This document shows, piece by piece, positions 18 through 28,703 of a stretch of 64,000 bases of DNA. How positions within the stretch are numbered: the first letter of the stretch is position 1; each line of letters begins with the position of its first letter. The translations under genes were made by a program, and so were the position numbers. The DNA lies in assembly GCA_964291295.2 (NCBI GenBank), contig OZ219754.1:3104001-3168000 (forward strand). Direction: 5' to 3'. Under the pieces are notes generated by a model that did not search any database, was not told where the DNA came from, and worked only from the letters and a program-made list of their open reading frames with translations. This stretch comes from an uncultured Candidatus Binatia bacterium. Lineage in GTDB: Bacteria; Desulfobacterota; Binatia; UBA9968; JAJDTQ01.

Positions 18-1187
18 GTGGGCACCGAGGCCGCCGATACCGTCGCGGCCCGGGGCCGCGTGCTGGCCGAGGAGCTGCGTTCCCCGGTCGACCTGCCCCA
101 CTTCAACCGGGCGGCCATGGACGGCTACGCCGTCATGGCCCGGGACACCTTCGGGGCCAGCGCCGCGCTGCCGGCCTGCCTCAGGCTTGCCGGGACGGTG
201 GAGATGGGCCAGGAGGTCACCCGCCGCATGGAACCGCACGAGGCCATGCGCATCTCCACCGGCGGCATGCTCCCGCCCGGCGGCGATGCCGTGGTGATGG
301 TGGAGCACACCGAGGAGACCGGCGACGGCATGGTGGAGATCCATCGGAGCGCCCCGCCCTGGCTCAACGTGATCCAGGTGGGAGACGATATCCGCAAGGG
401 CGAACCGGTCTTCCCGCGGGGCCGGCGGCTTCGGGCCCACGACCTCGGCGCGCTGACCGGCATCGGGGTCGCGTCGGTGCCGGTCTACAGAAAACCGCGC
501 GTGACCCTGGTATCCACCGGCGACGAGATCGTCCCGGTGCACCGGGAGCCGCGCCCCGGACAGGTACGCAACATCAACCAGCATTCCCTGGCGGGGCTTG
601 TCGCCGAATGCGGTGCGGTGTTGAACGATCTCGGCGTTGTCGCCGACAATCCGCGGGAACTGCGCGAGGCGCTGATCACGGGCCTGGACTGGGGCGATCT
701 CGTGCTCCTGTCCGGCGGCAGTTCCATGGGAACCCGCGACGTGGCGCTGGAAGTCATCCGCTCGCTGCCCGACGCCAGAATCCGCTTCCACGGCATCTCC
801 ATCAGTCCGGGCAAACCCACCCTTTATGCCGAGGCGGCCGGGAAGCCCGTGCTCGGCCTGCCCGGGTATCCGGTTTCCGCCCTCGTCATCTTCGATCTGT
901 TCGCCGCACCGCTGATACGGACGCTGGGAGGCGAGGGGGCTGCGGCCGCGCCGTTTTTCCGCGGCACCGCAAGGGCCGTCCTCGCCACCAACATCTCTTC
1001 ACGGACCGGCCGGGAGGACTACGTGCGGGTCACCCTGGAACACAGGGACGGAACCCTCCGCGCCGCGCCGTTGCCGGGCAAGTCCGGAGCCATCTTCACC
1101 CTGGTCAAGGCCGACGGCATGGTCCGCATCGACCTTGACCGCGAGGGCCTGGAACAAGGGGAAGAGGTGGAAGTGGCGCTGTTCTGA
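18..1187 (+). CDS. moeA: Molybdopterin molybdotransferase MoeA (probably 5'-truncated by the window edge)
   Basis: Motifs RAAMDGYAV, STGGMLPPGGDAVVMVE, STGDE, SGGSS, PGKP and GLPGYPVS. The frame is open from the window start. Confidence 0.93.
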   Translation: MGTEAADTVAARGRVLAEELRSPVDLPHFNRAAMDGYAVMARDTFGASAALPACLRLAGTVEMGQEVTRRMEPHEAMRISTGGMLPPGGDAVVMVEHTEETGDGMVEIHRSAPPWLNVIQVGDDIRKGEPVFPRGRRLRAHDLGALTGIGVASVPVYRKPRVTLVSTGDEIVPVHREPRPGQVRNINQHSLAGLVAECGAVLNDLGVVADNPRELREALITGLDWGDLVLLSGGSSMGTRDVALEVIRSLPDARIRFHGISISPGKPTLYAEAAGKPVLGLPGYPVSALVIFDLFAAPLIRTLGGEGAAAAPFFRGTARAVLATNISSRTGREDYVRVTLEHRDGTLRAAPLPGKSGAIFTLVKADGMVRIDLDREGLEQGEEVEVALF

Positions 1188-1188
1188 C

Positions 1189-3123
1189 ATGGCACGGAAA
1201 CGCTACCTCAGGAAGACCCCCCTGGAGCGGGCGCGGCAGGCGTTCCTGGACGCCGTTGACGGCAGCCCCCTGGAGGACGAGACGGTGGCTGTCGGCGAGG
1301 CGCTCCACCGGATCACCGCCGAGCCCGTGTTCGCCAGGATCTCGTCGCCCCACTACCACGGGTCGGCCATGGACGGGATCTGCGTAAGCGCGGAGGATAC
1401 CTTCGGTGCCACGGAGTTCTCCCCCCGGCAACTCCGGCCATTGACCGGCGAAGCCCGGGCCGATGGATGCTTCGCCTACCTGGACACCGGCCAGCCGCTG
1501 CCGTCCTGGGCCAACGCGGTGATCATGATCGAGAAGGTGCGGGAGCTCGAAGATGGCACCGTGTCCATCGACGAAGCGGCGGCGCCGTGGCAGAACGTGC
1601 GCCTGGCGGGCGAGGACGTGGTGGCCACCGAGTTGCTGCTGCCGCGGAACCATCGCCTGCGGCCCCATGACATGGGGGCCGTGCTGGCGGCGGGCCATAC
1701 CACCCTTCGCGTCAAGGCGCGTCCCCGGGTGGCCCTCATTCCCACGGGTGACGAGATCACCGCTCCCGGGGCAGCACCCCGCCCGGGACAGGTCATCGAT
1801 TTCAACTCCACCGTGCTGGCCGCCATGGTAGCCGAGTGCGGCGGCGCGGCGCAGACCTTTCCGGCCGTCGCCGACGACCCGGCGCTCCTGAAACGCGCGC
1901 TTGCGGACGCCCTCGAGGACCACCACCTGGCGGCCCTCATCGCCGGATCGTCCGCGGGCGCGCGGGACTTCACCGCGGCGGTGATCGACGACGCGGGCGA
2001 ACTGCTGGCGCACGGCATCGAAGTCATGCCCGGCAAGCCCGCGGTCCTGGGCGTGGTCGGCGGCAAGCCAGTCATGGGCATCCCCGGCTACCCCGTGTCC
2101 GCCATCGTCATCGCCCGCGAACTCCTCCAGCCGGCACTGCGGCGAATGCTGGGCACGGACCCCGGCGCCCCGGCGGAGGTCCGTGCCGTGGCGCCGCGAA
2201 AGATCCCCTCGCGACTGGGCCTGGAGGAGTTCGTCCGGGTCACGCTGGGAAAGGTCGATGACCGGCTCATGGCCGTTCCGCTGGCGCGCGGCGCGGGGGT
2301 CATCCACACCATGGTGCGGGCCGACGGATTCCTGCGCATTCCGGGGAGAGTGGAGGGGATCAACGCCGGCGAGGAGATCACCGTCGAACTGCTGCGGTCG
2401 CCCGGGGAGATCGCGCATACGGTGCTCTGCACCGGCAGCCACGACCTCTCCATCAGCGTGCTGGAAGACCAGCTCAAGTGCCGGGACCCGCGGTTCAGGA
2501 TCGCCACGGCCAACGTCGGCAGCCTCGGCGGACTGCATTCCATCCGGCGCGCCGAGACGCACATGGCCGGCACCCACCTGCTGGACCCCGCCACCGGCGC
2601 GTACAACATTCCGGACCTCCGGCGCGTGCTCCCGGATGTGCCGGTGGTGCTCGTGCACTGCGTCAGACGCCGCCAGGGCCTGCTGGTGCCCCGGGGCAAT
2701 CCCCTGGGGCTGTCGAGCATCGCCGACCTGGGGAGCCGGGCGCTGCGGTTCGTCAACCGGCAGCCCGGCTCGGGCACCCGCGTGCTGCTGGACTACAATC
2801 TCGCGCAACTCGGCATCGAAACCACCGCGGTCAGGGGATACGAACACGAGGCGTTCACCCACATGGCGGTGGCGGTGGCCGTGGCCAGCGGTCTGGCGGA
2901 CACCGGCCTGGGGATTCTTTCCGCCGCCAATGCGCTGGAACTGGACTTCATTCCGGTGGGCGACGAGCAGTACGACCTGGTGCTGCGGCGGTCGTTCCAC
3001 GACTCGCCGGCAGGCGCCGCGCTGCTGGCGGTCCTCCGCTCCGCCGGATTCCGGCAGGCGATGGAATCCCTCGGCGGCTACGACACCGGCACCAGCGGCG
3101 ACATCCTGTACGAGCAGGGATAG
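1189..3123 (+). CDS. moeA: MoeA fused to a C-terminal periplasmic-binding-protein-like domain
   Basis: ATG 1 nt after the upstream stop. MoeA motifs SAMDG, PTGDE, PGKP, GIPGYPVS, then a PBP-like domain (GSHD, VGSLGG, NRQPGSGTR). Confidence 0.9.
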   Translation: MARKRYLRKTPLERARQAFLDAVDGSPLEDETVAVGEALHRITAEPVFARISSPHYHGSAMDGICVSAEDTFGATEFSPRQLRPLTGEARADGCFAYLDTGQPLPSWANAVIMIEKVRELEDGTVSIDEAAAPWQNVRLAGEDVVATELLLPRNHRLRPHDMGAVLAAGHTTLRVKARPRVALIPTGDEITAPGAAPRPGQVIDFNSTVLAAMVAECGGAAQTFPAVADDPALLKRALADALEDHHLAALIAGSSAGARDFTAAVIDDAGELLAHGIEVMPGKPAVLGVVGGKPVMGIPGYPVSAIVIARELLQPALRRMLGTDPGAPAEVRAVAPRKIPSRLGLEEFVRVTLGKVDDRLMAVPLARGAGVIHTMVRADGFLRIPGRVEGINAGEEITVELLRSPGEIAHTVLCTGSHDLSISVLEDQLKCRDPRFRIATANVGSLGGLHSIRRAETHMAGTHLLDPATGAYNIPDLRRVLPDVPVVLVHCVRRRQGLLVPRGNPLGLSSIADLGSRALRFVNRQPGSGTRVLLDYNLAQLGIETTAVRGYEHEAFTHMAVAVAVASGLADTGLGILSAANALELDFIPVGDEQYDLVLRRSFHDSPAGAALLAVLRSAGFRQAMESLGGYDTGTSGDILYEQG

Positions 3124-3223
3124 GAACAGGCGGTCCATCCACCGGCGCGGCGGCGCCTCCCGGTGGGCGCATCGGGCGGGGCGGGCATCGGGCGGGCTGG
3201 ATACGGAAGCGGGTCCGGGGTGC

Positions 3224-3310
3224 TGGTGCCGGGAGCCGGACTTGAACCGGCACAGGCCAAGGCCCGCGGGATTTTAAGTCCCGTGTGTCTACCCATTCCA
3301 CCATCCCGGC
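3224..3310 (-). tRNA. tRNA-Leu(UAA)
   Basis: Reverse complement GCCGGGATGGTGGAATGGGTAGACACACGGGAC-TTAAAA-TCCCGCGGGCCTTGGCCTGTGCCGGTTCAAGTCCGGCTCCCGGCACCA: anticodon TAA, long variable arm, encoded CCA. Confidence 0.96.
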
Positions 3311-3408
3311 GCAACACGTCTCCATAACTTCCGTCCATCCCTTCGTCAACCGGAGACTCCCGCGGCCGCGCACACGACCCGTTCCCTTGCGTGGCACCCG
3401 GCACTTCG

Positions 3409-3446
3409 CTACCGTGGTCCGTGAGATCTACCGTGGTCCGTGAGAT
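3409..3446. repeat. Exact 19-nt tandem duplication (CTACCGTGGTCCGTGAGAT x2) upstream of the grdB-like gene
   Basis: Copies at 3409-3427 and 3428-3446. Confidence 0.95.
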
Positions 3447-3475
3447 CGGGTCAGCCAATGGCAGGGAGGCCAGGC

Positions 3476-4804
3476 ATGAAGCGCGTGGCACACGTCGTGA
3501 ACCAGTTCTTTGCCGGCATCGGCGGGGAGGAAAAGGCGGATGCCGTTCCGGGGATCCTCGATACCCTGGCGGGACCGTCGCGCGGCCTGCAAGGGCGGCT
3601 GCAGGGCGAGGCGACGGTGGCTCCCACCATCCACTTCGGCGACAACCACTTCCACGAACGGGCCGCGGAGGCACGGGCGGCCCTCCTGCGCGCGGTCGCG
3701 GCTGCGGAGCCGGACATCGTCGTGCTGGGTCCGGCGTTCAATGCCGGGCGCTACGGCCTCGCCTGCGTCGAGATCGGGCACCGGGTGACCACCGAGTTGG
3801 AGCGCGTGTGCGTAACCGCCATGCACGAGGACAATCCGGCGGTGGAAACGTACCGGCGATACCATAACCCCGGGCTGTTCCTCCTGCCCACAACGGAGAC
3901 GGCCGCGGGCATGGGCAAGGCCCTCGACGATCTCGGCCGTTTCATTGCCAGGCGGCTGCGCGGCGAGCCCCCGGGCACCGCCGGGGACGAGGGCTATCTG
4001 CCGCGGGGAATCCGGACCCAGGTGCGGAGTGGCCGGACCGGCGCCGACCGCGCCCTGGCCATGCTGCTCGACAAGCTGGAGGGAAAGCCCTTCGCCACCG
4101 AAATACCCGTCCGGAACTGGGACCGGGTGGCGCCCGCGGCCGCGGTCAAACGCCTCGACAAGGCCAGGGTCGCGCTGGTCACCACCAGCGGGGTGGTGCC
4201 GTGGGGCAATCCGGACGGCTTCAAGACCTTCCGCAACACGTTCTGGCGCAAGTATCCGGTGGCGGAGTTGAAGACCATGGAGCCGGGCATGTGGGAGGCG
4301 GTGCACGGCGGCTACAACGTCGCCGACATGAACACCAACCCACTCTACGGCGTTCCGCTGGACGCGCTGCGGGAGCTCCGGCACGAGGGCCGATACGAGG
4401 ATCTCTACCCCGCCTACTACGTCATACCCGGCAACCAGGGCTCGCCCTCGGCCATGCAGCGGGTGGGACGGGAGATCGCCGCGGAACTCAAGGCCAACAG
4501 CGTGGACGCGGCGCTGCTGGTCAGCACGTGAGGGACCTGCAGTCGCAGCGGAGCTGTGATCAGCAAGGAGTTGGACCGTGCCGGAGTTCCCGTGTCGATG
4601 ATCAGTGCCATGTTCCCTCTGGCGGAGCAGGTGGGCGCCAACCGCATCGTCAAGGGCGTCCGGATTCCCCATCCCTGCGGCGACCCGGGCCTGCCGTCGG
4701 AGGTCGACGGAAAACTGCGCAAGGCCATCGTCGAGACCGCTCTCAAGGCCCTTGAGGAAGACGTCGACGGGAGCACCGTGTTCACCCCGGACGCAGCGTC
4801 ATGA
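3476..4804 (+). CDS. grdB: Glycine/sarcosine/betaine reductase selenoprotein B family (GrdB/GrdH-like); Sec at in-frame TGA 4529-4531
   Basis: N-terminus MKRVAHVVNQFFAGIGGEEKA, motifs GPAFNAGRYG and ALVTTSGVVP. ORFs 3440-4531 and 4556-4804 share a frame and join as VST-U-GTCSRSGA...GANRIV...IPHPCGDP, 442 aa. RBS GGAGG upstream. Confidence 0.92.
4536..4568 (+). promoter_or_regulatory. Putative bacterial SECIS hairpin
   Basis: TCGCAGC (4543-4549) pairs with GCTGTGA (4553-4559) around a GGA loop 18 nt after the UGA; lower stem CCTGC/GCAAGG. Confidence 0.75.
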
Positions 4805-6126
4805 GCAGCGGCCGGCACGGCACGCCGCTGGAGTTGGCGGAATTTCCCGTGAACGAGCTTCGGTCGGGCGGCGCGTTGCGATACCGCGGCCGGACCCTGG
4901 AGGTGGACGAGGCGGCGTTGGCGGAAACCGCTTCACGGGATCCCGGAGTCCTGTCCGCCAGGCTCGACATCATCCGGCCTGGCGAGCGGGTACGGGTCAC
5001 CGGGATTCGCGACATCGTGGAGCCCAGGGTCAAGGTGGCCGGCGGCGGTCAGGTGTTTCCCGGGATCACCAATCCGGTGGCCGCCGTGGGGGCCGGCCGC
5101 ACTCATCGGTTGTCCGGCATGACCCTCACCACCACCGCGGCGTACGAGGGCACCATCCGCACCGGCACCACGGCCCCGCGCAGCGCCATCCTCGACATGT
5201 GGGGACCGGGGTCCGAGCTTACCGGATTCAGCCGCCTCCCGAGCCTGGTCCTCACCCTCGCGCTCTCCCCGGACCTGATCGAGGCCGAGGCGCACCAGGC
5301 GATACAGGCCGCCGAGTACCGGGTGGCCCAGCGGCTGGCGGAAACCACGGTGGAGGCCAGGCCCGCGTCCATCGAGACCCACGGAGCGGCACACGGAAAC
5401 CCGGACCTGCCCAGGGCCGTGCTCATCGTCGGCTGCATCACCGAATCGGAGCACCGGCCGTCAGGCCTGGGATATTACGGGCTGCCGGTGCGTGAGTCGC
5501 TGTCCACGGTGGCCCACCCCAACGAGTTGCTGGACGGCGCGGTCACCGGCAATACCCTGAAGAGCATCGCCTACTACCCCACCACCTGGGACTGGCAGAA
5601 CCAGCCCCTGGCCCTGAGCTTGTCCCGGGAGCACGGCCGCCGGCTCGATTTCGCCGGCGTCATCCTGCTGCGTATCGGCTTCGGAAGGTTCCAGGAGAAG
5701 GAGGTGGCCGCGCACAACGCGGCCCAGGTGGCTGGCGCCCTTGGAGCGAAGGCCGCCCTGGTCACCTGGATCGGTTCCGGCAATGCCTTTATGGAAGTGA
5801 TGCTGGCGGTGCGCGCCTGCGAGCGGAAAGGCATCCGGACCGTGCTGGTTACCTACGAGTATGGCGGCAGGGACGGCGTGGACTCACCGCTGCTTTTCTA
5901 CGACGCCTGCGCCGACGCGGTGGTGAGCACCGGCAGCCGCGACCGCACCCTGGAACTGCCTCCGGCGGACCGGGTGGTGGGGGGGTATGAACGGCTTCAG
6001 GTTCTCAACTACCCCGGCGCACCGGTGGTGCCGGCCGCCGGCGCCATCCACCTCGACGCGGTCGACGCCATCATCGGCGGCACCGATCTCTGGGGCGGCC
6101 GGGACTGGACCTGCCGGGCGCACTGA
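4801..6126 (+). CDS. Glycine/sarcosine/betaine reductase component B proprotein (GrdE/GrdI-like)
   Basis: ATGA overlap with grdB. Motifs DIVEPRVKV, VGAGRTHRL, ILDMWGPG, HPNELLDGAV, ACERKGIRTV and ADAVVSTG. Confidence 0.85.
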   Translation: MSSGRHGTPLELAEFPVNELRSGGALRYRGRTLEVDEAALAETASRDPGVLSARLDIIRPGERVRVTGIRDIVEPRVKVAGGGQVFPGITNPVAAVGAGRTHRLSGMTLTTTAAYEGTIRTGTTAPRSAILDMWGPGSELTGFSRLPSLVLTLALSPDLIEAEAHQAIQAAEYRVAQRLAETTVEARPASIETHGAAHGNPDLPRAVLIVGCITESEHRPSGLGYYGLPVRESLSTVAHPNELLDGAVTGNTLKSIAYYPTTWDWQNQPLALSLSREHGRRLDFAGVILLRIGFGRFQEKEVAAHNAAQVAGALGAKAALVTWIGSGNAFMEVMLAVRACERKGIRTVLVTYEYGGRDGVDSPLLFYDACADAVVSTGSRDRTLELPPADRVVGGYERLQVLNYPGAPVVPAAGAIHLDAVDAIIGGTDLWGGRDWTCRAH

Positions 6127-6223
6127 GCATGCGCACCGGGCTCGCAGACTCCGACAGAGTCATCATCGATATCAGGGAGCACTGACGCGAAACCGCTCCG
6201 GACAACGCTTCCAGGCACACGGC

Positions 6224-6472
6224 ATGGCAACACGACGACGGCTACGCAGAAGAACGCGACGGAAGAGGAGCCGCCGCGCGTGGCTCCTGGTTCCGGCGAT
6301 CATCCTGGCAGTGATGCTGGGGTGGCTGTACCGGATCGAGATCGTGAACCTCGCCACCTTCCGGTTCAGCGGGATCGACTTCAGCCGGCAGCCCGCGGGC
6401 ACTTCCGAGGGCGTTGCCCCGATCACGGAGAAGGAGCGCCGGGAACTGGAGGGGATCCTCAAGAACCGCTGA
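6224..6472 (+). CDS. Small hypothetical single-pass membrane protein with Arg-rich N-terminus
   Basis: MATRRRLRRRTRRKRSRR followed by hydrophobic AWLLVPAIILAVMLGWLY; GC-type codon usage. Confidence 0.6.
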   Translation: MATRRRLRRRTRRKRSRRAWLLVPAIILAVMLGWLYRIEIVNLATFRFSGIDFSRQPAGTSEGVAPITEKERRELEGILKNR

Positions 6473-6501
6473 TCCGGGAGGCTCCGCCGCCACCACTGGC
6501 G

Positions 6502-7581
6502 CTACAGCCCACCGGGCAGACTGTAGAAACGCTGGGCGTTGCGTGACAACACCGCGGTCTTGTCCTCTTCGGTGAGGTCTTCGCTCTCGATGACCTCGCC
6601 CAGTTCTTCCTTGCAGAACTCGTTGTTCACCTCGTGGGGAAAGTCCGAGGAGTAGACCCAAGGCTTGTTCCCCACGGTCTTGATGGCGTGGGCCAGATCC
6701 GGTTCGTGGCCCTCGCAGCCGACGAAAATCCGACCGCCCTCGATGTGCCGCCGGCAGTACTGGCTGACGCTCTCGCCCTTCTCGAGTTGCAGGAACTCGG
6801 CCCGGGGGTCGTGCTGGATGTGCGTTTCGTAGGAGCGGTCGAAGCGCTCGAGACACATGAGCAGCCAGGCGACGCCCCCCTCCAGGAAACCGATGCGCAG
6901 GTTGGGATACTTGTCGAAAATGCCGTTGAAGACGATGCCGCCGAAGGAGATCATCTGTCCGAACGGATGGCCGAGGGCGTGCACCGGGGCGTACGGATGG
7001 AGGTCATCCATGCCCAGGTTCTCGTGCGCGCCGCCGTGGATGCCCAGGCAGCAACCCAGCCGGTCGGCCTCCTGGTAGATGGGCCAGTAGTACTTGTGGC
7101 CGAGATGCAACTGGATGCCGGTGGAGGGCAGCATGGCGCCGCACATCCCCAGCTCCTCCACCGCCCGGCGCAGCTCCTTCACCGCCTCGTCCGGCTCCTG
7201 AAGCGGAATCAGAGCCACCGCCTGGAACCTCGGACTCTTGCTGACGTAGTTCTCGGCAATCCAGTCATTGTAAGCGCGGGCCAGGTCGATGGCCCAGTCC
7301 TGGCTCACCACCTTGCCGTAGGACAGGCCCACGGTGGGATAGAGGACCGTCCGGTCGATGCCGACGTCCTCCAGAAACTCCACCCAGCCGTCGAAGCCCA
7401 CCTGCTGGAATGAACCCTCCGGAAGCTTGTGCGCGTTGGCCGAATGCAGGTGGTCCAGCGGCGGGAACGGGTTGGACCAGCGCATCTGTTCCCGCACCGC
7501 CTTGGGAAAGCGGCTCGTGATGGCCGCCATGTCCTCCACGACGTGACCGTCGCCGTCAATGATCTGATACTTGTTTGCCAT
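6502..7581 (-). CDS. Amidohydrolase family protein (amidohydro_2)
   Basis: Motifs IIDGDGH, ARAYNDW, IHGG, FLEGGVAW, SSDFPH and NAQRFY. Confidence 0.88.
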   Translation of the reverse strand: MANKYQIIDGDGHVVEDMAAITSRFPKAVREQMRWSNPFPPLDHLHSANAHKLPEGSFQQVGFDGWVEFLEDVGIDRTVLYPTVGLSYGKVVSQDWAIDLARAYNDWIAENYVSKSPRFQAVALIPLQEPDEAVKELRRAVEELGMCGAMLPSTGIQLHLGHKYYWPIYQEADRLGCCLGIHGGAHENLGMDDLHPYAPVHALGHPFGQMISFGGIVFNGIFDKYPNLRIGFLEGGVAWLLMCLERFDRSYETHIQHDPRAEFLQLEKGESVSQYCRRHIEGGRIFVGCEGHEPDLAHAIKTVGNKPWVYSSDFPHEVNNEFCKEELGEVIESEDLTEEDKTAVLSRNAQRFYSLPGGL

Positions 7582-7776
7582 GGGTAACCTCCGGGTAGGC
7601 CCGTGTCGTGGTGTCCGCAGATCCGGCGCCGCTGGCGGGCAGGCCCTTTCGACGGACCCGCCCGCCAGCGGGCTCCGGGCATTGAGCGGGTCTTAGCCGG
7701 CTCCGCGGGAATTGTCAAGAATGCGCCGAGGCCGGCCAGTGGCCCGCCCGAGGCGACTCGTGCTAAGGACCATGCC

Positions 7777-9078
7777 ATGAGCAGCACCCGACGAACCGGC
7801 GACTGGTCGCCGCCCGACATCCTCTCCCGCCCCGAGGTGGTCAAACTGTCCGAAGAGACCCTGGCCCTACCCGACATGGCGATCGGGAACCGCGAGGACA
7901 TCTTCCGCATCCAGGCGCTGGACCTGGACTGGGACATCGGTACCATGACCTGCGAACCCGAGGACGCGGGCCGCGTGCCGAAAGTTGCGGACGGAAGGCG
8001 CGCGGGCATCTTCCTGCTGCACGGCGGCACATCGGACTACAAGTCCCTGGAGCCGGTGGCCCGGATGATGGCCGCAAAATACGGCTTCAAGGTGACGCTG
8101 ATGACCTTTCCCGGGCGCCTGTACCTGCTGGACCCCTCCCGGGATTGGCCCGGCGACACCCTCGAACCCGACGGCACCGGCCGGACGCCGCTGTGGATCC
8201 GGGAGACCCGCATCACGCGCGACCAGTACCAGGTGGCCCGGGACGAGTCCCGGCGCGCCAGCTACGGCACCGTCCTGTCGCTGGCGGCCCGCGAGGGAAG
8301 CGAATTCTACCACCGCATGGCCGCCTGGCCCGCGGCCTTCGAGGAAGCGATGCGGGAGGCCTGCCGCCGGGAGTTTCCCGAGGCCGGGTATTCCCTGTAC
8401 GTCCACGGCCACTCCACCGGCGGACCCTTCGCCATGATCGCCGCGCAGCGGGTGGCCAATGTGGCCGGCGTCCTGGGGTACGGCTCGTCGACCTTCGGCT
8501 ACATCTACACCGCGGTCACCGGGGATCGGTGGAACTTGCCCTTCAACCACCTGCGGCTGCGGACTTGGCGCGACACCGCCCGCTACCTCCACGAAGGGCT
8601 CAAGGACAAGGGCTACGGCCTCCCCATGCTGATGGAACTTGCCATGGAGAAGTGGGAAGTGGAGAAGAGGCGCGCCAACTTCAAGGCCGAGGACTTCGTC
8701 CACAAGAACGGCGCCGGCGCGCTGGAACAGGCCGCGCGCGTCACCGCCCGCCGCCTTGGGTTGGGAGCGGCCGCCGAGCGGGAATTGGTGGGGCGCTATC
8801 TCGGATATCTGCGGGAGCTGGCCGGCCCCGGCGTCAAGCCGGTGCCGCCCGTGCTTTCGCTTCACGGTGTGGACGACGACACCGTCACCCTGCAGCGGTG
8901 TGGCGACTCCCGGCCGTTGTACGCCGCCATGAAGCCGGCGCCGAAGGTCGCCTGCGTCTCCCTGGGCGCCGGCGTCCATACCTGGGACCGCACCTGCGAG
9001 GATCTCCCGCGCGGCATCCTGCCGCCGGTGTGCCGGCTCTGGCACGACGCCATCGCGGGTGGCTACTTCGCGCCCTGA
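7777..9078 (+). CDS. Hypothetical alpha/beta-hydrolase-fold protein
   Basis: LLHGG, nucleophile elbow GHSTGG, HGVDD and a C-terminal GVH. Confidence 0.65.
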   Translation: MSSTRRTGDWSPPDILSRPEVVKLSEETLALPDMAIGNREDIFRIQALDLDWDIGTMTCEPEDAGRVPKVADGRRAGIFLLHGGTSDYKSLEPVARMMAAKYGFKVTLMTFPGRLYLLDPSRDWPGDTLEPDGTGRTPLWIRETRITRDQYQVARDESRRASYGTVLSLAAREGSEFYHRMAAWPAAFEEAMREACRREFPEAGYSLYVHGHSTGGPFAMIAAQRVANVAGVLGYGSSTFGYIYTAVTGDRWNLPFNHLRLRTWRDTARYLHEGLKDKGYGLPMLMELAMEKWEVEKRRANFKAEDFVHKNGAGALEQAARVTARRLGLGAAAERELVGRYLGYLRELAGPGVKPVPPVLSLHGVDDDTVTLQRCGDSRPLYAAMKPAPKVACVSLGAGVHTWDRTCEDLPRGILPPVCRLWHDAIAGGYFAP

Positions 9079-9092
9079 TTTCGCGCCCTGAT
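9067..9092. repeat. Exact 13-nt tandem duplication (TTCGCGCCCTGAT x2) spanning the stop codon
   Basis: Copies at 9067-9079 and 9080-9092. Confidence 0.9.
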
Positions 9093-9158
9093 CGTGCCGG
9101 CTCCGCCGGCTTCCGGGTATAGGGTTTCGTGACCGGACGTGAGTCAGACGGGAGAACC

Positions 9159-10055
9159 ATGATCGACGCACGAGCGCCCGCGGGATACAAGCCGCCGTGG
9201 CTCAAGGTCCGGCTGCCTTCCGGTGCCCGCTACAACCGCCTCAAGGAGAGCTTCCGGACCTTGAAGCTGCACACCGTGTGCGAAGAGGCCCGCTGCCCCA
9301 ACCTCGCCGAGTGCTGGCAGTCCGGCACCGCCACCCTCATGATCCTGGGGGACGTCTGCACCCGCGGGTGCCGTTTCTGCGCGGTCAGGACCGCCAGAGC
9401 CGGTACCCCGGTGGACGACGACGAGCCTCGCCGCGTGGCCGAGGCTCTGGCGCGCATGGATCTCCGCTACGTGGTTCTCACCTCCGTGGACCGCGACGAC
9501 CTGGCGGACGGCGGCGCCGGCATCTTCGCCGGGACCATCCAGGAGACCCGAAGGCGCTGTCCCGACCTGCTCATCGAGGCGCTGATCCCGGATTTCCGCG
9601 GCGACGTGCGCGCGCTCCGAAAAGTGGTGGACGCCGCCCCGCACGTCATCGGCCAGAACATCGAGACGGTGGAGCGCCTCACCCGCCCGGTTCGGGACGC
9701 GCGCTGCGGCTACGGGCAGACCCTGGACGTGCTGGCGAACGTCAAGACCCTGAACCCCCGCATCCATACCAAGAGCGCGATCCTGCTGGGCCTCGGAGAA
9801 ACGGCCGCGGAGGTGGCGGCCACCATGCGCGACCTGCGCGCCCGGAGCGTGGACATCCTTACCCTGGGCCAGTATCTACAACCCACCCCGAAACACCTGC
9901 CGGTTGCCGAGTTCCTGCATCCGGACCGCTTTCGCGAGTACGAGGAACAGGGCCGGAAGCTCGGCTTTCGTTACGTCGCCGCCGGTCCCATGGTGCGCAG
10001 TTCCTACCGCGCCGCGGAGTTCTTCGTGGAAAAGATGTGCGCCCCGCAGGGCTGA
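9159..10055 (+). CDS. lipA: Lipoyl synthase
   Basis: [19 protein letters not shown], radical-SAM motif CTRGCRFC and C-terminal VRSSY. Confidence 0.97.
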
Positions 10056-10134
10056 GACCGGCTGGCGCGCCGCCAGGGGCGCGGCGGCCAGCACGCCCTC
10101 ACGTGCGCGCGGCGCCTTCCGGCTCGCGGCAAGA

Positions 10135-11199
10135 TCAGCCGAGCCGGTCTCCGGCCAGCTTCGCGCCCTCCACGCGCGCGCGTATCTTGGCGAAGGCCGT
10201 GGCCCGGGCGGTGGAGGTGTCGTCGCCGAACGGCGCGAAGCCGCAGTCGTCGGTGCACCCGAGCCCGTCGGTGCCCAGTCGGGAGGCCGCTTCCAGGATC
10301 CGCTCGCAGACCTCCCGCGCGCTCTCGACCCGGGGATCGATGGGATCGGTGACGCCGATGAACACCCTCTGACCCGCACGCCGTTCCCGCGCGATGATGT
10401 CGAGAACGCGCGGCCGGTCCGCTTCACTGGCCATCTGGATGAAGAACCGGCCGGCCTTTATGGCGAACAGGTCGGGAAGCAGTTCGGCGTAATCGACGTC
10501 CGCGGAGTGGGTGGAGTCCTGGTCGCCCCCGGGACACGTGTGGACGCCGATGCGGCTGCGCTCCGCATCGGAGAACCGCCCGAGCACCGTGTTGTTGAGC
10601 TCCACGAAGTTTCGCAGCAGCCCGCGCGAGGGATCCAGCTTGCAGCACAGCCGCCCTTCGGTGAAATCCATCTGCACGCTGTCCGCGCCGGCCTCGAAGG
10701 CTGACCGGATGTCCTTCTCGCATTCGTTCACCAAGTCGGCGACAAAGACGTCACGCGGATAACCGTCGATGCCGTCCCGGGGATAGATCAGGCTGATGGC
10801 GGACGGCGCGATGACCGCCTGCTTCACCGGCCGGCGGGCATGCCTCCGAGCCGCGGCCACGTACGCTCCCGAATAGGTGGTGTACCGGAACGGTCCGGCG
10901 GTCAGGCGCGGCAACTGCCGCGTGTGGCCGTCTTCGAAAGGAATCAGGACTCCGTCCGGTGCGAGGGTGTCGAGACCCGCCAGCGGGTAGGTCGCGAAGC
11001 TCGGCTTCGACTGCTCTCCGTCGGTGACCACCGGCGAACCCGTCTCCTCCATGGCCGCCACGGTCTCCGCCACCGCCCGGTCCATGGCCTGGCTCAGATC
11101 GGCATCGTCAAGCCGGCCGGCACCGTGCGCGCGCATGGCCTCGACGAGCCAGCCGGGGCGCGGGATGCTGCCGATGGGTTCGGTCGGGATAGTCATCAT
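10135..11199 (-). CDS. Cobalamin-independent methionine synthase II family (MetE C-terminal-like) protein
   Basis: IGSIPRP, VTDGEQ, Zn ligands HTC and DDCGF; single-barrel length of 354 aa. Confidence 0.85.
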   Translation of the reverse strand: MMTIPTEPIGSIPRPGWLVEAMRAHGAGRLDDADLSQAMDRAVAETVAAMEETGSPVVTDGEQSKPSFATYPLAGLDTLAPDGVLIPFEDGHTRQLPRLTAGPFRYTTYSGAYVAAARRHARRPVKQAVIAPSAISLIYPRDGIDGYPRDVFVADLVNECEKDIRSAFEAGADSVQMDFTEGRLCCKLDPSRGLLRNFVELNNTVLGRFSDAERSRIGVHTCPGGDQDSTHSADVDYAELLPDLFAIKAGRFFIQMASEADRPRVLDIIARERRAGQRVFIGVTDPIDPRVESAREVCERILEAASRLGTDGLGCTDDCGFAPFGDDTSTARATAFAKIRARVEGAKLAGDRLG

Positions 11200-11434
11200 T
11201 TCCTCCCCGGATCGAATGGTGCGCCGACTCTACTGGATGTTCGCCGTGACGACAACCATGCAGCCGTCCCTGGAGCGGGTTTCCAGGCGCCAGGCCGCAG
11301 TCCCCGGCAAGACGGATCCGGCGCGCCTCGACAGCCCTGCAACCTGTCCGGCAGGCCGCCCCGACCCTTGCGTGATGGACGGCTGCCTGGGGTCGATCCA
11401 CATGACTCGGCAGACAGTTTGCTCTCATGAGGAG

Positions 11435-11547
11435 GTGCAAGTGTTCCAAGTGCAAGTGTTCTTCATGATTCTGCCTATATGTTATCCATATTTGCATAAA
11501 GTTATCCTTTTTTGGTGAATTCCGAGTGAATCCCGAGTGAATTTTCG
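11435..11547. promoter_or_regulatory. AT-rich divergent promoter region with direct repeats
   Basis: GTGCAAGTGTTC at 11435 and 11450; GTTATCC at 11481 and 11501; GTGAATTCCGA/GTGAATCCCGA/GTGAATTTTCG at 11515, 11526 and 11537. Confidence 0.55.
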
Positions 11548-11624
11548 CGAAACAGGCCGATAGTCTGTCTCGTCGCGGCATCAAGTATCTTGCCGTGGCA
11601 TCGAAACCACGGAAACCATCTGTC

Positions 11625-13177
11625 ATGGACGCCTCCGCGCAGAATCGCTTTTCAGGCCCGGTTGCCATTTTTCAGGAACGGCGCCTTCCCGTGACCGCGA
11701 CGCCGGCGGGCTACGCCGCGCTGATCGGGGCCTACCATCTCCCGGTGCCGCTTCCCCGGAATCTCAGTGCCATTGGTGAGCGGCACAGGCGCATGGCACA
11801 AGGCGGCTGGCGCATCTATTCGCCGCCCTACAGGCCGAACGCAACCCTGGAAGGCCATCTCACCTTCGCCCTGAAACATGAAGGGCTGGACCTCTGGCCG
11901 TCCTCAAGAGGCTCTTTGCCGCGGCCGGCCCCGACGCCATCGCCCATCTGGTCAGGGCCAGGCCCACGGGCGCCTACGCCCGGCGCATCTGGTTCCTCCA
12001 TGAATGGCTGACCGGCACGCGGCTTGACCTCCCGAACGCCCGTCGTGGAGCCTACGCGCCCGTCGTCGATCCGAACCAGCAATATGCCATCTCCGCGAAA
12101 ACCTCTTCGCGGCACCGGGTCAAGAACAATCTCCCCGGCACACCGGACTTCTGTCCGCTGGTGTTTCGCACCGAAGCGCTGGAGCGCTTCATCGCCAAAG
12201 ACCTGCGGACGCGCGCCCGGGAAGCCATTGCCGCCGTGCCGCGCGACCTGCTCGCGCGCACGGCGGCTTTCCTGCTTCTCAAGGATTCGAAATCGAGTTT
12301 CGCCATCGAGAGCGAACATCCGCCGCAGGATCGCATCCAGCGGTGGGCGCGCGCCATCGGTCAGGCCGGGCGGCAGTCCCTCGATCATGACGAACTGCTG
12401 CGGTTGCAACGCCTCGTGATCGGAGATACGCGCTTCGTCCGTCCCGGTCTGCGGACCGAGGGTGGCTTTGTCGGCCAACACGACCGTGAGCCGCGCATGC
12501 CCATACCCGACCACATCAGCGCGCGGCCGGATGATCTGGGACCTTTGCTGGAGGGCATGGCCGCTTTCGACCGGGGAGCCGCGCGTCAACTCGATCCCAT
12601 TGCAGCCGCATCGGTCCTGGCCTTCGGCTTTGTCTACATCCATCCTTTTGACGACGGCAATGGCCGGCTGCACCGTTACCTGATTCACCACGTGCTGGCC
12701 CAGTGCGGTTTCAACCCGCCGGGACTGGCCTTTCCGGTATCGGCGGCCATTCTGGACCGGATCGGAGACTACCGCGCCGCCCTCGAAGACTACTCGCAGC
12801 GGCTGCTGCCGGCGGTACGGTGGGAACCGACAGAACAAGGCAATGTCCGGGTGTTGAACGATACCGGAGATTTCTACCGGTATTTCGACGCCACGCCGCA
12901 AACCGAGTTCCTGTACGGCAGCGTGCAGCGGACCATCGAACTGGATTTGCCGCAGGAAGCCGTATTCCTGCGGCGCCATGACGCGTTTCGGCACCACCTG
13001 AACCTGATCGTGGATATGCCGGACCGCCTGTCGGATCTCCTTTTCCGGTTCCTCCACCAGAACGGCGGCACGCTTTCCCGCCGCGGACGGGAAACGGAAT
13101 TCGCCGCGCTGACGGACCACGAGGTCGCGCGTATCGAGGCCATTTACCGGGAAGAATTCGCCGGCCACCCTTGCTGA
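11625..13177 (+). pseudogene. Fic family protein, frameshifted by an apparent 2-nt (CT) duplication at 11892-11895
   Basis: The first frame ends FALKHEGLDL. The second frame continues AVLKRLF...YARRIWFLHEWL into ORF 12161-13177, which has the Fic motif HPFDDGNGRLHR. Confidence 0.82.
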
Positions 13178-13434
13178 ACGCGAACGGAGGTCATCCCGCG
13201 AAAGCAGAGCGCCGCGGCGGCTGTCGCCGGCGCGGAACAGGCTTGCGCGAACAGGCCGGGTGCAAAGGCGCTCCTGTCGACGAACCTGACAAGCGGGCGG
13301 CGGGCCGAACCCGCGGCGCCCTTCCGCGGCGCCGTTCATCCCGGTGGCCGGCCCGGTGCGAGGAACGCCGCCGCCTTGACATCCCGCCGGAGTGCGTGCA
13401 GGTAAATGGAAAACCGCGCAGGAAAGGAATACGC

Positions 13435-14373: not shown

Positions 14374-14471
14374 ACTGACGCCTCGTCCGGGCGGAGAGCC
14401 CGCCACACCTTGACGGGCGCTTCCGGAGCGGCTAATGAACCTCTTCCACGGGCGGCCTTTCCGGCCGCCCG

Positions 14472-14639
14472 GTTCTCGGGTCCCTCACGGGATAAAAGGG
14501 AAACCGGTTGAAATCCGGTGCGGTCCCGCCACTGTGAATGGGAAGGCTTGCCTGAAGCCACTGTTCCCCACCGGGAATGGGAAGGCGGCAAGCCGGTCGA
14601 TGACGACCGGCCCATGAGCCAGGAGACCTGCCCGAGAAT
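14472..14639 (+). ncRNA. Cobalamin riboswitch 1
   Basis: P1 TTCTCGGG/CCCGAGAA; AAAAGGGAAACCGGTTGAAATCCGGTGCGGTCCCGCCACTGT; GCCACTG...GGGAAGG; B12 box GAGCCAGGAGACCTGCC. Confidence 0.95.
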
Positions 14640-14759
14640 CCACCGCAACCATGCTCTCCGAGGAGAGAGGAGGTGTCGCCATCCGCACTTGTACCCTGAA
14701 CGCTCCCGTTCCCGCCCGGTCGAAGCGGCACTGACCTGCGGCCGCCTGCAGCGAACGGG

Positions 14760-15503
14760 ATGCGCCGGCTTCTCTACTGCCTGTTGGGCTCGACGCTGAT
14801 CCACGGTCTGCTCCTGTGGGTACCTTTTCCCATGCGCGCCGGCGGCGAGGACGAGAGCGCTCTTCGGCCGTTGCGGATACGACTGGTGACGGCACCCCGC
14901 GCCGAGCCGGACCGCCGCGTTTCCCGACAGTCCCGACAATCCCGGCAGCACCGTGGAGTGCGGACGGCGGTACCTGCCAAGGCGCGGAAGTCCCCGCCGG
15001 CAAGGAAGCGGCCGGAAACGCCGGCCCGCCCCCGGATGGCGGTCGTGCCGGCACCACCGGAACCTGCCGCCACCACACCGGTTCGAGTCCGCCCGCTGGT
15101 GCAGGAGCCGGGGAAACGGCAGCCAGCCGGCCGTGACGGGAGCGTTGCGGAGAGAACGCATCGCGCCCGCGCCATCGCCCCCGACAAGCCCGCGGACCGG
15201 GGCATCGAGGCCAGCGCCGGTTTCAATCCGGTCCGCTATGCACGGACCGTGAAGCCCCGCTACCCCGCCACGGCACGACGGGCCGGATGGCAGGGCACCA
15301 CCGTTCTCAAGGTACGGGTGGACAGCCAGGGTGCGCCGGACCGGGTCACGGTGGATCGGACTTCCGGCTTCGACATCCTTGATGCGGCGGCCGTCAAGGC
15401 CATGGGACGCTGGAGATTTCATCCGGCGCGCCGCGGCAACCACCGCGTGGCCGCTTGGGTCCGGATCCCGGTGACATTCAAACTGAAGGAGGACAAGCGC
15501 TAG
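14760..15503 (+). CDS. tonB: Energy transducer TonB
   Basis: N-terminal TM with S-x3-H (STLIHG), Pro/Arg-rich linker and TonB_C domain (PRYPATARRAGWQG...SGFDILDAAA...WRFHPA). Confidence 0.88.
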   Translation: MRRLLYCLLGSTLIHGLLLWVPFPMRAGGEDESALRPLRIRLVTAPRAEPDRRVSRQSRQSRQHRGVRTAVPAKARKSPPARKRPETPARPRMAVVPAPPEPAATTPVRVRPLVQEPGKRQPAGRDGSVAERTHRARAIAPDKPADRGIEASAGFNPVRYARTVKPRYPATARRAGWQGTTVLKVRVDSQGAPDRVTVDRTSGFDILDAAAVKAMGRWRFHPARRGNHRVAAWVRIPVTFKLKEDKR

Positions 15504-15538
15504 CAAACCGATTGCGAGTCACCAGCAAACGACAAACT

Positions 15539-15711
15539 GAAGGCGGACGCCAGGGAAAGGGGTGAGAATCCCCTGCTGCCCCGCAACTGTAACGGCGACG
15601 AAAACCGCAACACGAGCCACTGCCCCTGCGACGGGCGGGAAGGCGCGGCGAGTAGGCCGGCAGCATCCAAGGACTGCCAGAAAGCCCAAGCCAGGAGACC
15701 TGTCCGTCTTC
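15539..15711 (+). ncRNA. Cobalamin riboswitch 2
   Basis: P1 GAAGGCGGAC/GTCCGTCTTC; AGGGAAAGGGGTGAGAATCCCCTGCTGCCCCGCAACTGTAA; GCCACTG...GGGAAGG; B12 box AAGCCAGGAGACCTG. Confidence 0.93.
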
Positions 15712-15747
15712 CACAGCAATCCGCTTTCGCGGGAAAGGAAGATTGCC

Positions 15748-17682
15748 ATGAAGTTTCTGTTCCCGGGTGTTGTCACCCTTCTCGTCCTTGTCGTCCTTCT
15801 GACCGTTCAACCCGGCGCCGCGCAGTCCCTGGGAGACGACCCGCGGAAGACTCCGGCTGCCGCCAACGACATCCGGCAGCTTCCCGAAATCGTGGTGTCG
15901 GCCAGCCGCGTACCGCTGGAAGCCAAGGCCGTGGGCAGCGCGGTCACGGTCATCACCGCGGAGGAGATCGAGCGCAGGCAGATCCGCGTCGTATCCGACC
16001 TGTTGCGCCAGGTCCCGGGGTTGGCGGTACACCGTTCCGGCCCCGTCGGCACCCTCACCGCCGTGCGAATCCGCGGCGCCGAAAGCCGCCATACCCTGGT
16101 CGTCATCGACGGCATGAAGGCCAACGACCCGAGCAACACGGGAGCCACGTTCAACTTCGCGAACCTGCTCGCCGCGAACATCGAACGCGTCGAGATCCTG
16201 CGCGGACCGCAGAGCGGCCTCTACGGCAGCGACGCCATCGGCGGCGTGATCAACATCATCACGAAACGGGGGCGAGGGCCGTCGAAGGCGAGTCTGGCCG
16301 TCGAGGGCGGTTCATTCCGAACCGGCAATGTCTCCGCCGGTCTGAGCGGCGGCGGCGACCGCTACCACTACTCCGTGAACGCCGCCGGCTTCAGAACAGC
16401 CGGGATATCCATCGCCGCGGGTGGCGAGAAGGACGGCTACCGGAATCAGACCTACGGTGCCAGACTCGGGTTCGAACCACTCGGACGGCTGGAAATGGAG
16501 TTGTCCGGCCGTTACGTCAAGGACGACGTGGAAACGGACAACGTACCGACGGACAGCAGCGACGAGACCGCCTCGGACCACGCCATGGGCCGCATCCGAC
16601 TCGCCTACAGCCTTTTCGATGGCACATGGAAGCATGCGCTGGAGGCCGCCATGGACCGCACCCGCCGCACCTTCGTTAGCCAGCAGTCGGGAACGTTCCG
16701 GTACGACGGCAGGAAGTCGCGCTTCGGCTACGAGACGAGCCTCTCCTTCGAGACTTCCGCCGTGACCGAGGCCGCGCACACCATCGTCCTGGCCACCGAG
16801 CGGGGGAAGGACACCCGGACATCCGGCGGAACCAGCGACAACGCCACCCACCACGGCTACTCCGGCGAATACCAGCTGGGACTCGCAGACCGGCTCTTTC
16901 TTTCCGGCGGCCTTCGCTACGACGACAACCAACGCTTCAAGGACACGGCCACATTCCGGTTGACGGCGGCCTATGTGTTCGACGGTCTCAGAACGCGCCT
17001 GCACGGCAGCTACGGCACGGGGATCAAGAACCCCACCCTGTCGCAACTGTTCCAGCAGTTCGGCCGCGTCGGACCGAATCCCGACGTCGAGCCGGAGGAA
17101 AGCAGGGGATGGGACATCGGTATCGAGCAGGAACTGGCCGGCGGGCGGCTTGCCGTGGACGCGACCTATTTCGACAACCGTCTCGAGAATCTGATCCATT
17201 GGAACGACGCCGGCACTCCCTGGTCCGTGAACCCCGACGACGACTTCTACGACAACCTGGACGGGACATCGCGAATCCGCGGGCTGGAGCTTGCCCTGAG
17301 GGGCGAACCGGCGGCGGGGTTCAGTCTGTCCGCTCACTACACCTACACCGACGCAAAGGATCCGGACGGCAAACGGCTGCCGCGGCGCGCCCGGCACGTG
17401 GCGAGCGTGAACCTCGGTTACCAATGGCTCGACAGCAGGGCCAACGTCGACCTCGGCGTCGACTACAACGGCGAGCAACCGAACCGGATAACCGATCCCG
17501 TGATGCTGCACGACTTCACCCTGGTCCGCCTCGCGGCCGCCTACAGGATCACCCGGCAAGTCGAACTCTTCGGACGGATCGAAAATCTCCTGAACGCGGA
17601 CTACGAGGAAGTACCCGACTACCAGACCACGGGCATCGGCTTCTTCGCCGGCATCCGGGGCACGCTGGAACTGCTGCCGTGA
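15748..17682 (+). CDS. btuB: TonB-dependent vitamin B12 receptor
   Basis: Signal peptide, TonB box EIVVSASR, plug motifs IRGAESRHTLVVIDG and IERVEILRGPQSGLYGSDAIGGVINIIT; directly behind a B12 riboswitch. Confidence 0.9.
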   Translation: MKFLFPGVVTLLVLVVLLTVQPGAAQSLGDDPRKTPAAANDIRQLPEIVVSASRVPLEAKAVGSAVTVITAEEIERRQIRVVSDLLRQVPGLAVHRSGPVGTLTAVRIRGAESRHTLVVIDGMKANDPSNTGATFNFANLLAANIERVEILRGPQSGLYGSDAIGGVINIITKRGRGPSKASLAVEGGSFRTGNVSAGLSGGGDRYHYSVNAAGFRTAGISIAAGGEKDGYRNQTYGARLGFEPLGRLEMELSGRYVKDDVETDNVPTDSSDETASDHAMGRIRLAYSLFDGTWKHALEAAMDRTRRTFVSQQSGTFRYDGRKSRFGYETSLSFETSAVTEAAHTIVLATERGKDTRTSGGTSDNATHHGYSGEYQLGLADRLFLSGGLRYDDNQRFKDTATFRLTAAYVFDGLRTRLHGSYGTGIKNPTLSQLFQQFGRVGPNPDVEPEESRGWDIGIEQELAGGRLAVDATYFDNRLENLIHWNDAGTPWSVNPDDDFYDNLDGTSRIRGLELALRGEPAAGFSLSAHYTYTDAKDPDGKRLPRRARHVASVNLGYQWLDSRANVDLGVDYNGEQPNRITDPVMLHDFTLVRLAAAYRITRQVELFGRIENLLNADYEEVPDYQTTGIGFFAGIRGTLELLP

Positions 17683-18134: not shown

Positions 18135-18229
18135 GGAGAAGGAAGGTGCCCGGTGGCGCCGCTGGTCTTCAAAACCAGTCTGAGGGCCGTAAGGTTCTCG
18201 GAGGGTTCGACTCCCTCCCTTCTCCGCCA
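18135..18229 (+). tRNA. selC: tRNA-Sec(UCA)
   Basis: 95 nt; 8-bp acceptor stem GGAGAAGG/CCTTCTCC plus GCCA; anticodon arm CTGGT-CT-TCA-AA-ACCAG; long variable arm; T arm GAGGG-TTCGACT-CCCTC. Confidence 0.96.
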
Positions 18230-27098: not shown

Positions 27099-27106
27099 GG
27101 GAACGG

Positions 27107-28470: not shown

Positions 28471-28703
28471 GACAGGATGCCGGTACGACGGAGCCGGAGA
28501 CCGGGAGGAGACCGCCTCGTGCCAACTTCTCCCCTGCGGGAATGCGGCACAAGATCCTCCCCAGCCACGCGAAAGGCACCGCGAAGGTACAGCACGCAGG
28601 CCGGGAGGCTTTTCGCCCACCGGCACCTCCCTGAACCGGCGGAACAGCAATGGGCTGATTGCACAGGTGTAGCGTTTCGCGGCAACACCCGTCAAACGGT
28701 GCC

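Follow-up and report, generated by a model that had tools for sequence, protein, structure and literature searches.

What does a TGA triplet inside a grdB-like gene encode, and what kind of reductase would such a gene specify when the last cysteine of its active-site motif is replaced by serine? These questions are raised by a locus in a stretch of 64,000 nucleotides from an uncultured Candidatus Binatia bacterium (contig OZ219754.1, positions 3,104,001 to 3,168,000), called here the window, whose first letter is position 1 of all coordinates. An earlier reading of the letters alone, referred to as the sequence-only reading, had joined two open reading frames (ORFs) through TGA 4529-4531 (residue 352) into a hidden selenoprotein of 442 amino acids (aa) related to GrdB. 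The join was found with all of its coordinates correct, and the gene is a genuine, conserved selenoprotein gene of the GrdB family, encoding a clade-wide variant of protein B. Its reading frame is defined by the following features.

3464..3469, + strand: Shine-Dalgarno-like GGGAGG, 6 nucleotides (nt) 5′ of the ATG, by direct reading
3476..4804, + strand: grdB-like selenoprotein gene, 442 aa with UGA352 read through, from ATG 3476-3478 to TGA 4802-4804
4529..4531, + strand: UGA codon 352, read as selenocysteine (Sec); TGA at the aligned column in 26 of 26 related loci and in 5 of 5 reference grdB/F/H genes

Reading frame, family and conservation

The mechanically called ORFs, 3440..4531 and 4556..4804, share one frame, and translation finds it open from codon 352 to TGA 4802-4804. 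At the place equivalent to the Shine-Dalgarno-like element, related loci carry AAGGAGG or GGGAGG. Profile searches place the protein in the GrdB superfamily. The Pfam model GRDB (PF07355) matches residues 2-351 (1.3e-104; 350.7 bits against a cut-off of 22), and the NCBIfam model TIGR01918 covers residues 3-436 with an alignment that continues across the TGA (415.6 bits against 65.45). The in-frame UGA stands at the conserved UGA/Cys column of the superfamily and is followed by G-T. Alignment with GrdB homologues across the TGA, a check suggested by the sequence-only reading, sets the window triplet against a TGA in five of five reference genes and against a Cys in the database proteins P0125, P0150 and P0167. 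The references, taken from large replicons in a plasmid collection, are two grdF genes of P. acidaminophilum, grdH of E. gilvus and the grdB-type genes of A. noterae and Photobacterium. P. acidaminophilum DSM 3953 carries two grdG-grdF pairs and grdA, and the E. gilvus genes are ordered grdA-grdC-grdD-grdI-grdH.

The conservation of the locus was followed in 26 related loci, 60-86% identical, which came from one scan of species-representative genomes and are labelled as Binatia (18), Thermodesulfobacteriota (2), Syntrophobacterales (2), Deltaproteobacteria (3) and Anaerolineae (1, partial). All 26 keep the TGA at the same column, the string U-G-T-C-S-R-S-G-A and a frame that stays open to the same stop. 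The outcome feared in the sequence-only reading, homologues that end at this stop, was therefore not encountered in these loci, and the proposal of a hidden GrdB-family selenoprotein stands. Codon statistics were derived from 23 gapless sequences, the window and 22 loci, with L009, L020, L022 and L026 excluded for length differences or partial sequence. Column entropy at codon positions 1, 2 and 3 is 0.228, 0.137 and 0.696 before the UGA, and 0.106, 0.055 and 0.528 for codons 364-442. The variation after the UGA falls mostly on the third position, a pattern typical of a translated protein under constraint. The first three codons 3′ of the UGA vary only silently (GGG/GGC/GGA, ACC/ACG and TGC/TGT).

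The window protein shares with GrdB, GrdF and GrdH its length, its domain architecture and the position of the Sec column after (L/V)(T/S)(S/A)T. It differs from them in being only 36-40% identical to the references and in missing the curated cut-offs of all three named types (385.6 of 602.2 bits for GrdB, 391.1 of 800 for GrdF and 375.6 of 775 for GrdH). In a tree of 15 rows, rooted for drawing only and made of the window, 6 of the 26 clade loci, the 5 references, 2 database Cys forms and 1 PrdB, the clade (95/96 support) forms a branch separate from the GrdB/GrdF/GrdH group (88/88). Judged by these sequences, the clade appears to be a distinct lineage, best represented by uncultured Binatia.

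The putative recoding hairpin, the active-site motif and its serine

The sequence-only reading had pointed to a GGA-loop hairpin 18 nt downstream of the UGA and to selC, and both are present in the window. They are listed with the two codons of the motif that follow the UGA.

4542..4560, + strand: selenocysteine insertion sequence (SECIS) hairpin, putative; 8-bp stem of 4542-4549 with 4553-4560, GGA loop 4550-4552
18135..18229, + strand: selC, tRNA-Sec, anticodon TCA (ARAGORN; Rfam RF01852, 75.2 bits against a cut-off of 47)
4538..4540, + strand: Cys355 codon TGC (U+3); Cys in 27 of 27 clade sequences, with synonymous TGC/TGT variation
4547..4549, + strand: Ser358 codon AGC (U+6); AGC in 27 of 27 clade sequences, TGC (Cys) in 5 of 5 references; its first base pairs with 4555

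The spacing of 18 nt runs from the UGA to the loop, and the Ser codon lies within the 5′ arm of the stem, as had been read. The 19-nt hairpin alone folds at -9.4 kcal/mol, which none of 200 shuffles equalled; in contexts of 60 and 121 nt, the fold energy is not unusual for DNA of 68% G+C (z 0.29 and -0.90). Because the longer contexts do no better than shuffles, fold energy was set aside as evidence for a SECIS, and conservation was used instead. The hairpin agrees with all four criteria of the bSECIS model in the form quoted by the Fig. 2 legend of PMC13188914: a loop of 3-9 nt, a stem of 4-16 bp, G at the first two loop positions, and a spacing of 16-37 nt with a minimum free energy of at most -7.5 kcal/mol. 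Among the 23 gapless sequences, the 443 codons of the gene include a single run of at least four that are invariant at the nucleotide level, and this run is codons 356-361. Silent variation is found in 218 of the 262 degenerate codons whose amino acid is invariant, and six specified codons would all be free of silent change with a probability of 1.7e-5. The references fold an equivalent hairpin with a GGN triloop at the same columns, that is, at the same codons of the gene. In the alignment of 32 sequences, 96.2% of the cells of the 8-pair stem are paired, and no slide in the 3′ direction comes close to this value. Two pairs are compensatory between clade and references, namely 18-28 (C-G and U-A) and 19-27 (A-U and U-A). 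Structural criteria, silent-site conservation and compensatory pairs together support the hairpin as a putative functional bacterial SECIS. On the minus strand, 54839-56215 encodes a pyridine nucleotide-disulfide oxidoreductase of the family "N-terminal to SelD" (TIGR03169, 353.4 bits against 310), with no SelD gene adjoining.

The active-site peptide is LLVST-U-GTCSRSGAVISKELDRAG and begins LLVST-U-GTCSRSGAV. The string VST-U-GTCSRSGA, with Ser in the place of the last Cys, had been read correctly, and UGTCSRS recurs in each of the 26 related loci. The expectation that characterised GrdB, GrdF and GrdH proteins carry UxxCxxC is borne out by the reference genes, which without exception encode LTST-U-GTCTRCGATM with the codons TGA GGN ACN TGY ACN CGT TGC GGN GCA ACG ATG; the motif is also stated in passages of two papers, both citing Wagner 1999. 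The G-T-C after Sec is common to both groups, while Ser replaces the third Cys in 27 of 27 sequences of the window clade. By analogy, Cys355 is the likely selenenylsulfide partner of Sec352. In an AlphaFold2 model built from a 14-row alignment (mean predicted local distance difference test, pLDDT, 84.7), Sec352 lies between the strand 345-350 and the helix 353-368, with Cys355 and Ser358 on the first two turns of this helix. The 90 residues after the UGA form beta-alpha-beta elements in the model (pLDDT 85-97). The PDB holds no sequence relative, and Foldseek returned only generic matches with two Rossmann domains and a template modelling (TM) score below 0.3.

The position of the Ser codon in the stem had led the sequence-only reading to suggest that RNA structure shaped the residue. 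The idea that the SECIS stem demands this codon can draw on the AGC lying in the stem, on its being frozen in 27 of 27 sequences and on its distance of a single base from TGC. The alignment does not bear it out. In the pair 19-27, the Ser/Cys codon contributes its first base (column 19; A or U), and column 27 is the wobble position of the Ala codon that follows two codons later, which holds U where the clade has Ser and A where the references have Cys. The base change from Cys to Ser is matched by a compensating silent change in Ala, and both versions fold the same hairpin; thus the stem accommodates either residue, and the RNA does not force the serine. Moreover, PrdB-type proteins lack the third Cys as well, with a different downstream sequence. 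RNA structure can account for the use of AGC over TCN and for the freezing of the codons, but not for the presence of Ser as the residue, and a stem-imposed serine is regarded as improbable.

The sequence-only reading had called for a survey of UxxCxxS variants. The C-terminal 108 residues were compared with 1.84 billion cluster representatives in an exhaustive, profile-free search, which gave 292 matches at E <= 0.001. From the 150 matches listed, 22 whose alignment extends into the motif region were fetched; the motif is covered cleanly by 19 of them, while two have an irregular sequence upstream and one begins only behind the motif. The 19 show C (11), W (4) or another residue (4) at the Sec column, and we infer that the four W are UGA read as Trp by the gene caller. 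The +3 position (C 5, S 9, G 4, A 1) and the +6 position (C 15, S 2, A 2) are both plastic. Cys at +3 with Ser at +6 occurs in none of the 19 and is seen only in the window clade and as the PrdB pattern: prdB of L. salivarius encodes U-GTC-HR-T, and a homologue of P. bifermentans has C-GTC-HR-S. By its sequence, the window motif is of the PrdB type (U-G-T-C-H-R-T/S) and not of the GrdB/F/H type. The term "UxxCxxS" was not found in the literature searched. Two of the database proteins, P0179 (697 aa; W at the Sec column, then GTCTRC) and P0167 (415 aa; CGTCTRC), are single-chain fusions of a GrdE-like part with a GrdB-like protein's C-terminal half.

The partner gene and the surroundings of the locus

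Directly 3′ of the grdB-like gene lies a gene of the Gly_reductase family, which also has members alongside grdB, grdF and grdH.

4801..6126, + strand: grdE/grdG/grdI-like partner gene, 441 aa; its start overlaps the grdB-like stop (ATGA)
5557..5559, + strand: Leu253 codon of the partner, at the column of the pyruvoyl-forming Cys (Cys242 of GrdG/GrdE, Cys429 of PrdA) in alignments
5434..5436, + strand: Cys212 codon of the partner, clade-specific, in a QGC(I/L)T(D/E)-type motif; Cys in 28 of 28 copies, with Leu, Ala or a gap in the references

The partner matches Pfam Gly_reductase at 1.5e-82 and NCBIfam GrdG with 180 bits against a cut-off of 780. The gene order differs between the groups, the window having B then E with the ATGA overlap and the references having E, G or I then B. 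The partner stands directly 3′ of the grdB-like gene and is intact in 23 of the 26 loci, and in L020 the contig ends before an intact partner. In L014 (7326-7443), the intact grdB-like gene is followed directly by an amidohydrolase gene, with no GrdE-like gene after it. In L012 (7326-8676), the GrdE-like gene is matched in two frames, for which a frameshift or an assembly error is possible.

The proprotein cysteine of GrdE and GrdG is absent from the partner. According to a passage of PMC9908766, GrdE of C. difficile carries its pyruvoyl group at a residue derived from Cys242. At the corresponding column, 28 of 28 clade copies have no Cys (Leu or Met in 22, Thr in 6), and none is found elsewhere in the loop. 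Cys is present in four of five Grd references (GrdG and two GrdE-type among them) and in PrdA, and Phe stands in GrdI of E. gilvus. GrdI and FarE, the latter from the fluoroacetate reductase of Cloacibacillus, are described in the relevant passages of PMC10838667 as lacking the pyruvoyl-forming Cys and as not being proproteins. With no Cys at the site that becomes the pyruvoyl group, the window partner is by analogy probably not a proprotein either. Three clade-specific cysteines of the partner, 212, 340 and 438, are each invariant in 28 of 28 copies. Cys212 was considered as a relocated processing site and rejected, as a more careful alignment shows a replacement of Leu/Ala in the conserved QG(L/A)(L/M)HD and not a two-residue insertion.

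The most informative of the related loci is L022 (60% identical, UGTCSRS), in which grdB-like, grdE-like, grdC and grdA genes follow each other on one strand with short gaps. Its grdC scores 510.9 bits on NF040746 (cut-off 450), and its grdA carries the canonical C-F-V-U. A search with the L022 GrdC found P0355, 59% identical and with 476.9 bits against 450, which seems to lie in the window's own genome, away from the window. Further GrdC homologues, P0366 and P0376, appear to lie in the genomes of L013 and L008, two other Binatia with the clade. The notion that the third Cys was lost because no protein A is present is weakened by the grdC and grdA beside the L022 relative and by the apparent GrdC in the window's genome. 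An ORF of 491 aa at 7603-9075 (+) was tried as GrdC and rejected, since BLASTP against the L022 GrdC shows no similarity (E 0.19) and no Pfam or NCBIfam model matches. This ORF has coding-like composition and is conserved at 70-79% identity near the amidohydrolase gene in L001, L014 and L015.

Over its positions 793-13322, L022 carries one GrdB-like gene and three GrdE-like paralogues, 57-60% identical to that of the window, interleaved with two solute-binding protein genes. Two of the GrdE-like paralogues and the solute-binding genes (SBP_bac_8 and NMT1/OpuAC-like) lie upstream, hydantoinase A/B genes lie downstream of grdA, and no grdD is found within the 13 kb. L020 has the same upstream part.

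Several further features of the window were recorded. A perfect 19-nt tandem duplication (3410-3428 and 3429-3447) ends 28 nt upstream of the ATG and covers the -10-like hexamer of a promoter-like element, TTGCGT-17 nt-TACCGT; this element is single-copy in at least 11 related loci, and the upstream region is different in the other loci. Just upstream, 18-3123 encodes MoeA and a MoeA fused to a PBP-like domain (molybdenum cofactor genes), and a tRNA-Leu(TAA) at 3224-3310 (-) separates moeA from the grdB-like gene. Farther along, 24684-29049 encodes a large subunit of the CO-dehydrogenase/xanthine-dehydrogenase family and a flavin adenine dinucleotide (FAD) subunit. Two cobalamin riboswitches were found, at 14461-14649 before an ORF with a TonB C-terminal domain (14700-15500), and at 15528-15721 before a BtuB-like TonB-dependent receptor (15541-17682).

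Proposed mechanism, alternatives and meaning

The gene is proposed to encode the Sec-bearing subunit of a substrate-specific protein B module, belonging to a reductase of the glycine/sarcosine/betaine type that feeds GrdA and GrdC. The full reading is given a probability of about 0.6. According to this proposal, SelB and Sec-tRNA(Sec) would recode UGA352 as Sec, directed by the hairpin 18 nt downstream, and the selenoprotein would be made together with its translationally coupled GrdE-like subunit. As in the family, Sec352, at the N-terminal end of a helix, would attack the alpha-carbon of an acetate-type substrate and expel the leaving group, and Cys355 would then form a selenenylsulfide with Sec352. 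The presence of Ser358 instead of the third Cys would leave a two-member Se-S couple only, as in the D-proline reductase PrdB. The lack of the pyruvoyl-forming Cys in the partner points to a substrate that needs no Schiff base, and an unprocessed partner could serve, for example, a quaternary amine or a compound with a non-amine leaving group. The carboxymethyl unit would most likely go on to selenoprotein A and protein C, whose genes would lie in other parts of the genome. The suggestion of altered redox chemistry or substrate, made in the sequence-only reading, is plausible, and it is sharpened by the PrdB-type motif, the partner without pyruvoyl Cys and the relative beside grdC and grdA.

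Non-canonical protein B modules of this kind have a precedent in FarB/FarE and in GrdI, whose subunits FarE and GrdI likewise lack pyruvoyl cysteines. In the sections of PMC10838667 that treat them, FarB is without CxxC, and the FarB/FarE and GrdI modules still feed GrdA and protein C. The window pair differs from the Far system in several respects. The partner scores 87.5 bits on the FarE model (cut-off 675), the window clade keeps the first Cys of the CxxC (FarB being compared by the paper's description only), and no radical-SAM or antiporter gene lies beside the pair.

Several points weigh against the proposed protein B module. No selA, selB or selD and no grdA, grdC, grdD or thioredoxin gene is found in the 64-kb window or within 6 kb of the Binatia-type loci. 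Sec insertion at UGA352 is a prediction from the DNA, and the compensatory SECIS pairs split two groups only, which amounts to about one event per pair. The neighbours of the Binatia loci are variable and offer no clue to the substrate (VOC/glyoxalase, TctA/TctC, Rieske, cupin and hydrolase genes). The placement of P0355 in the window's genome is indirect. GrdH of E. gilvus, of the betaine type, keeps UxxCxxC, so that a non-processed partner alone does not predict the loss of the third Cys. Finally, a motif of the PrdB type could, alternatively, be a sign that protein A is not needed. In the literature searched, nothing was found that links Binatia or Binatota with glycine, betaine or sarcosine reductase, and the only Binatota paper found to mention grdH reports that grdH was not detected.

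The most serious of the rival explanations is a self-contained two-subunit reductase like PrdAB, in which Sec352 and Cys355 would themselves reduce the substrate, the electrons coming from a dithiol or from an electron-transfer protein, and no selenoprotein A, protein C or acetyl-phosphate would be involved. A passage of PMC10298544 states that proteins A and C play no part in proline reductase. The resemblance to PrdB lies in U/C-G-T-C-x-R-(S/T) without a third Cys and in homology over the C-terminal half (TIGR04483, 2e-25, residues 224-428), and in both the window and the Binatia-type loci the two genes stand alone, grdA/C/D and thioredoxin genes being absent from their vicinity. Only the motif type agrees, however: PrdB has about 240 aa and lacks the N-terminal half, whereas the window protein has the full-length GrdB architecture, reaches 89.7 bits on the PrdB model against a cut-off of 300 and has no prd genes nearby. 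The partner PrdA keeps the pyruvoyl Cys that is absent from the window partner. Furthermore, L022 combines the same motif type with grdC and grdA in one gene string, GrdC is apparently encoded in the window's genome and in two other Binatia genomes with the clade, and the grdG-grdF modules of P. acidaminophilum are also located apart from grdA/C/D. A PrdAB-like enzyme is accordingly judged unlikely, though it deserves more weight than the two explanations that deny a functional selenoprotein.

One of these holds that UGA 4529-4531 is an ordinary stop, which would yield a protein of 351 aa and a separate small protein from GTG 4556. Gene callers predict exactly such products. Database relatives number at least 2,300 at E <= 0.001; the best 120 all cover at most 79% of the query, and 117 of the 120 have 350-353 aa. 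Many C-terminal pieces of 70-100 aa also exist as separate predicted proteins. The database copies stored with a cut at the Sec codon are an annotation habit and not evidence of termination. A comparison of residues 335-443 with a word-indexed protein database, seeking full-length forms, scored no match among 776 candidates. Against an ordinary stop, the stretch of eight codons that separates the TGA from GTG 4556 shows conservation at the protein level, its changes at GGN, ACN and TGY being silent, the curated family model aligns across the TGA, the SECIS and the tRNA-Sec are present, and the Cys-containing homologues P0125, P0150 and P0167 are single polypeptides. The other explanation, a decaying or inactive paralogue, could cite one genome paper, a passage of which treats a B component that lacks UxxCxxC as a probable pseudogene (PMC6778437), as well as the pyruvoyl Cys lost from the partner. 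It conflicts with the retention of TGA, motif, frame and stop in 26 of 26 loci spanning 60-86% identity and with an entropy pattern by codon position that reflects purifying selection. It conflicts equally with the intact partner of 23 of the 26 loci and with the invariance of the partner's Cys212, Cys340 and Cys438 in all 28 copies. Both an ordinary stop and an inactive paralogue are thus hardly credible, and the preferred reading remains a protein B module with a Sec-Cys couple.

The findings bear on how protein B genes are recognised. In genome papers, UxxCxxC is used to accept or reject such genes, and this rule fails, as the +3 and +6 positions vary across the superfamily and purifying selection on the clade is clear. 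The stored entries for an entire clade of selenoenzymes stop at the Sec codon, which makes its active-site string invisible in protein databases. A PrdB-type motif on a protein of GrdB architecture, with a partner that lacks the pyruvoyl site and with grdC and grdA beside relatives, offers a way to ask what the role of the third Cys is and which substrates need no Schiff base. The module would also add a selenium-dependent reductive pathway to the physiology of an uncultured phylum that only genomes have revealed.

A broader proposal, advanced tentatively and rather unlikely to hold in full, is that the clade represents a widespread, previously uncharacterised class of protein B in Binatia and related uncultured lineages. 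Such a class would combine a minimal PrdB-type Sec-Cys couple with a pyruvoyl-free partner carrying the invariant Cys212, would feed the GrdA/GrdC acetyl-phosphate machinery, and would act on a substrate unable to form a Schiff base, e.g., a quaternary amine such as a betaine. Binatia are associated with methylotrophy. If the proposal is true, the breakdown of osmolytes would be linked to the supply of methylamines in a phylum rich in methylotrophs.

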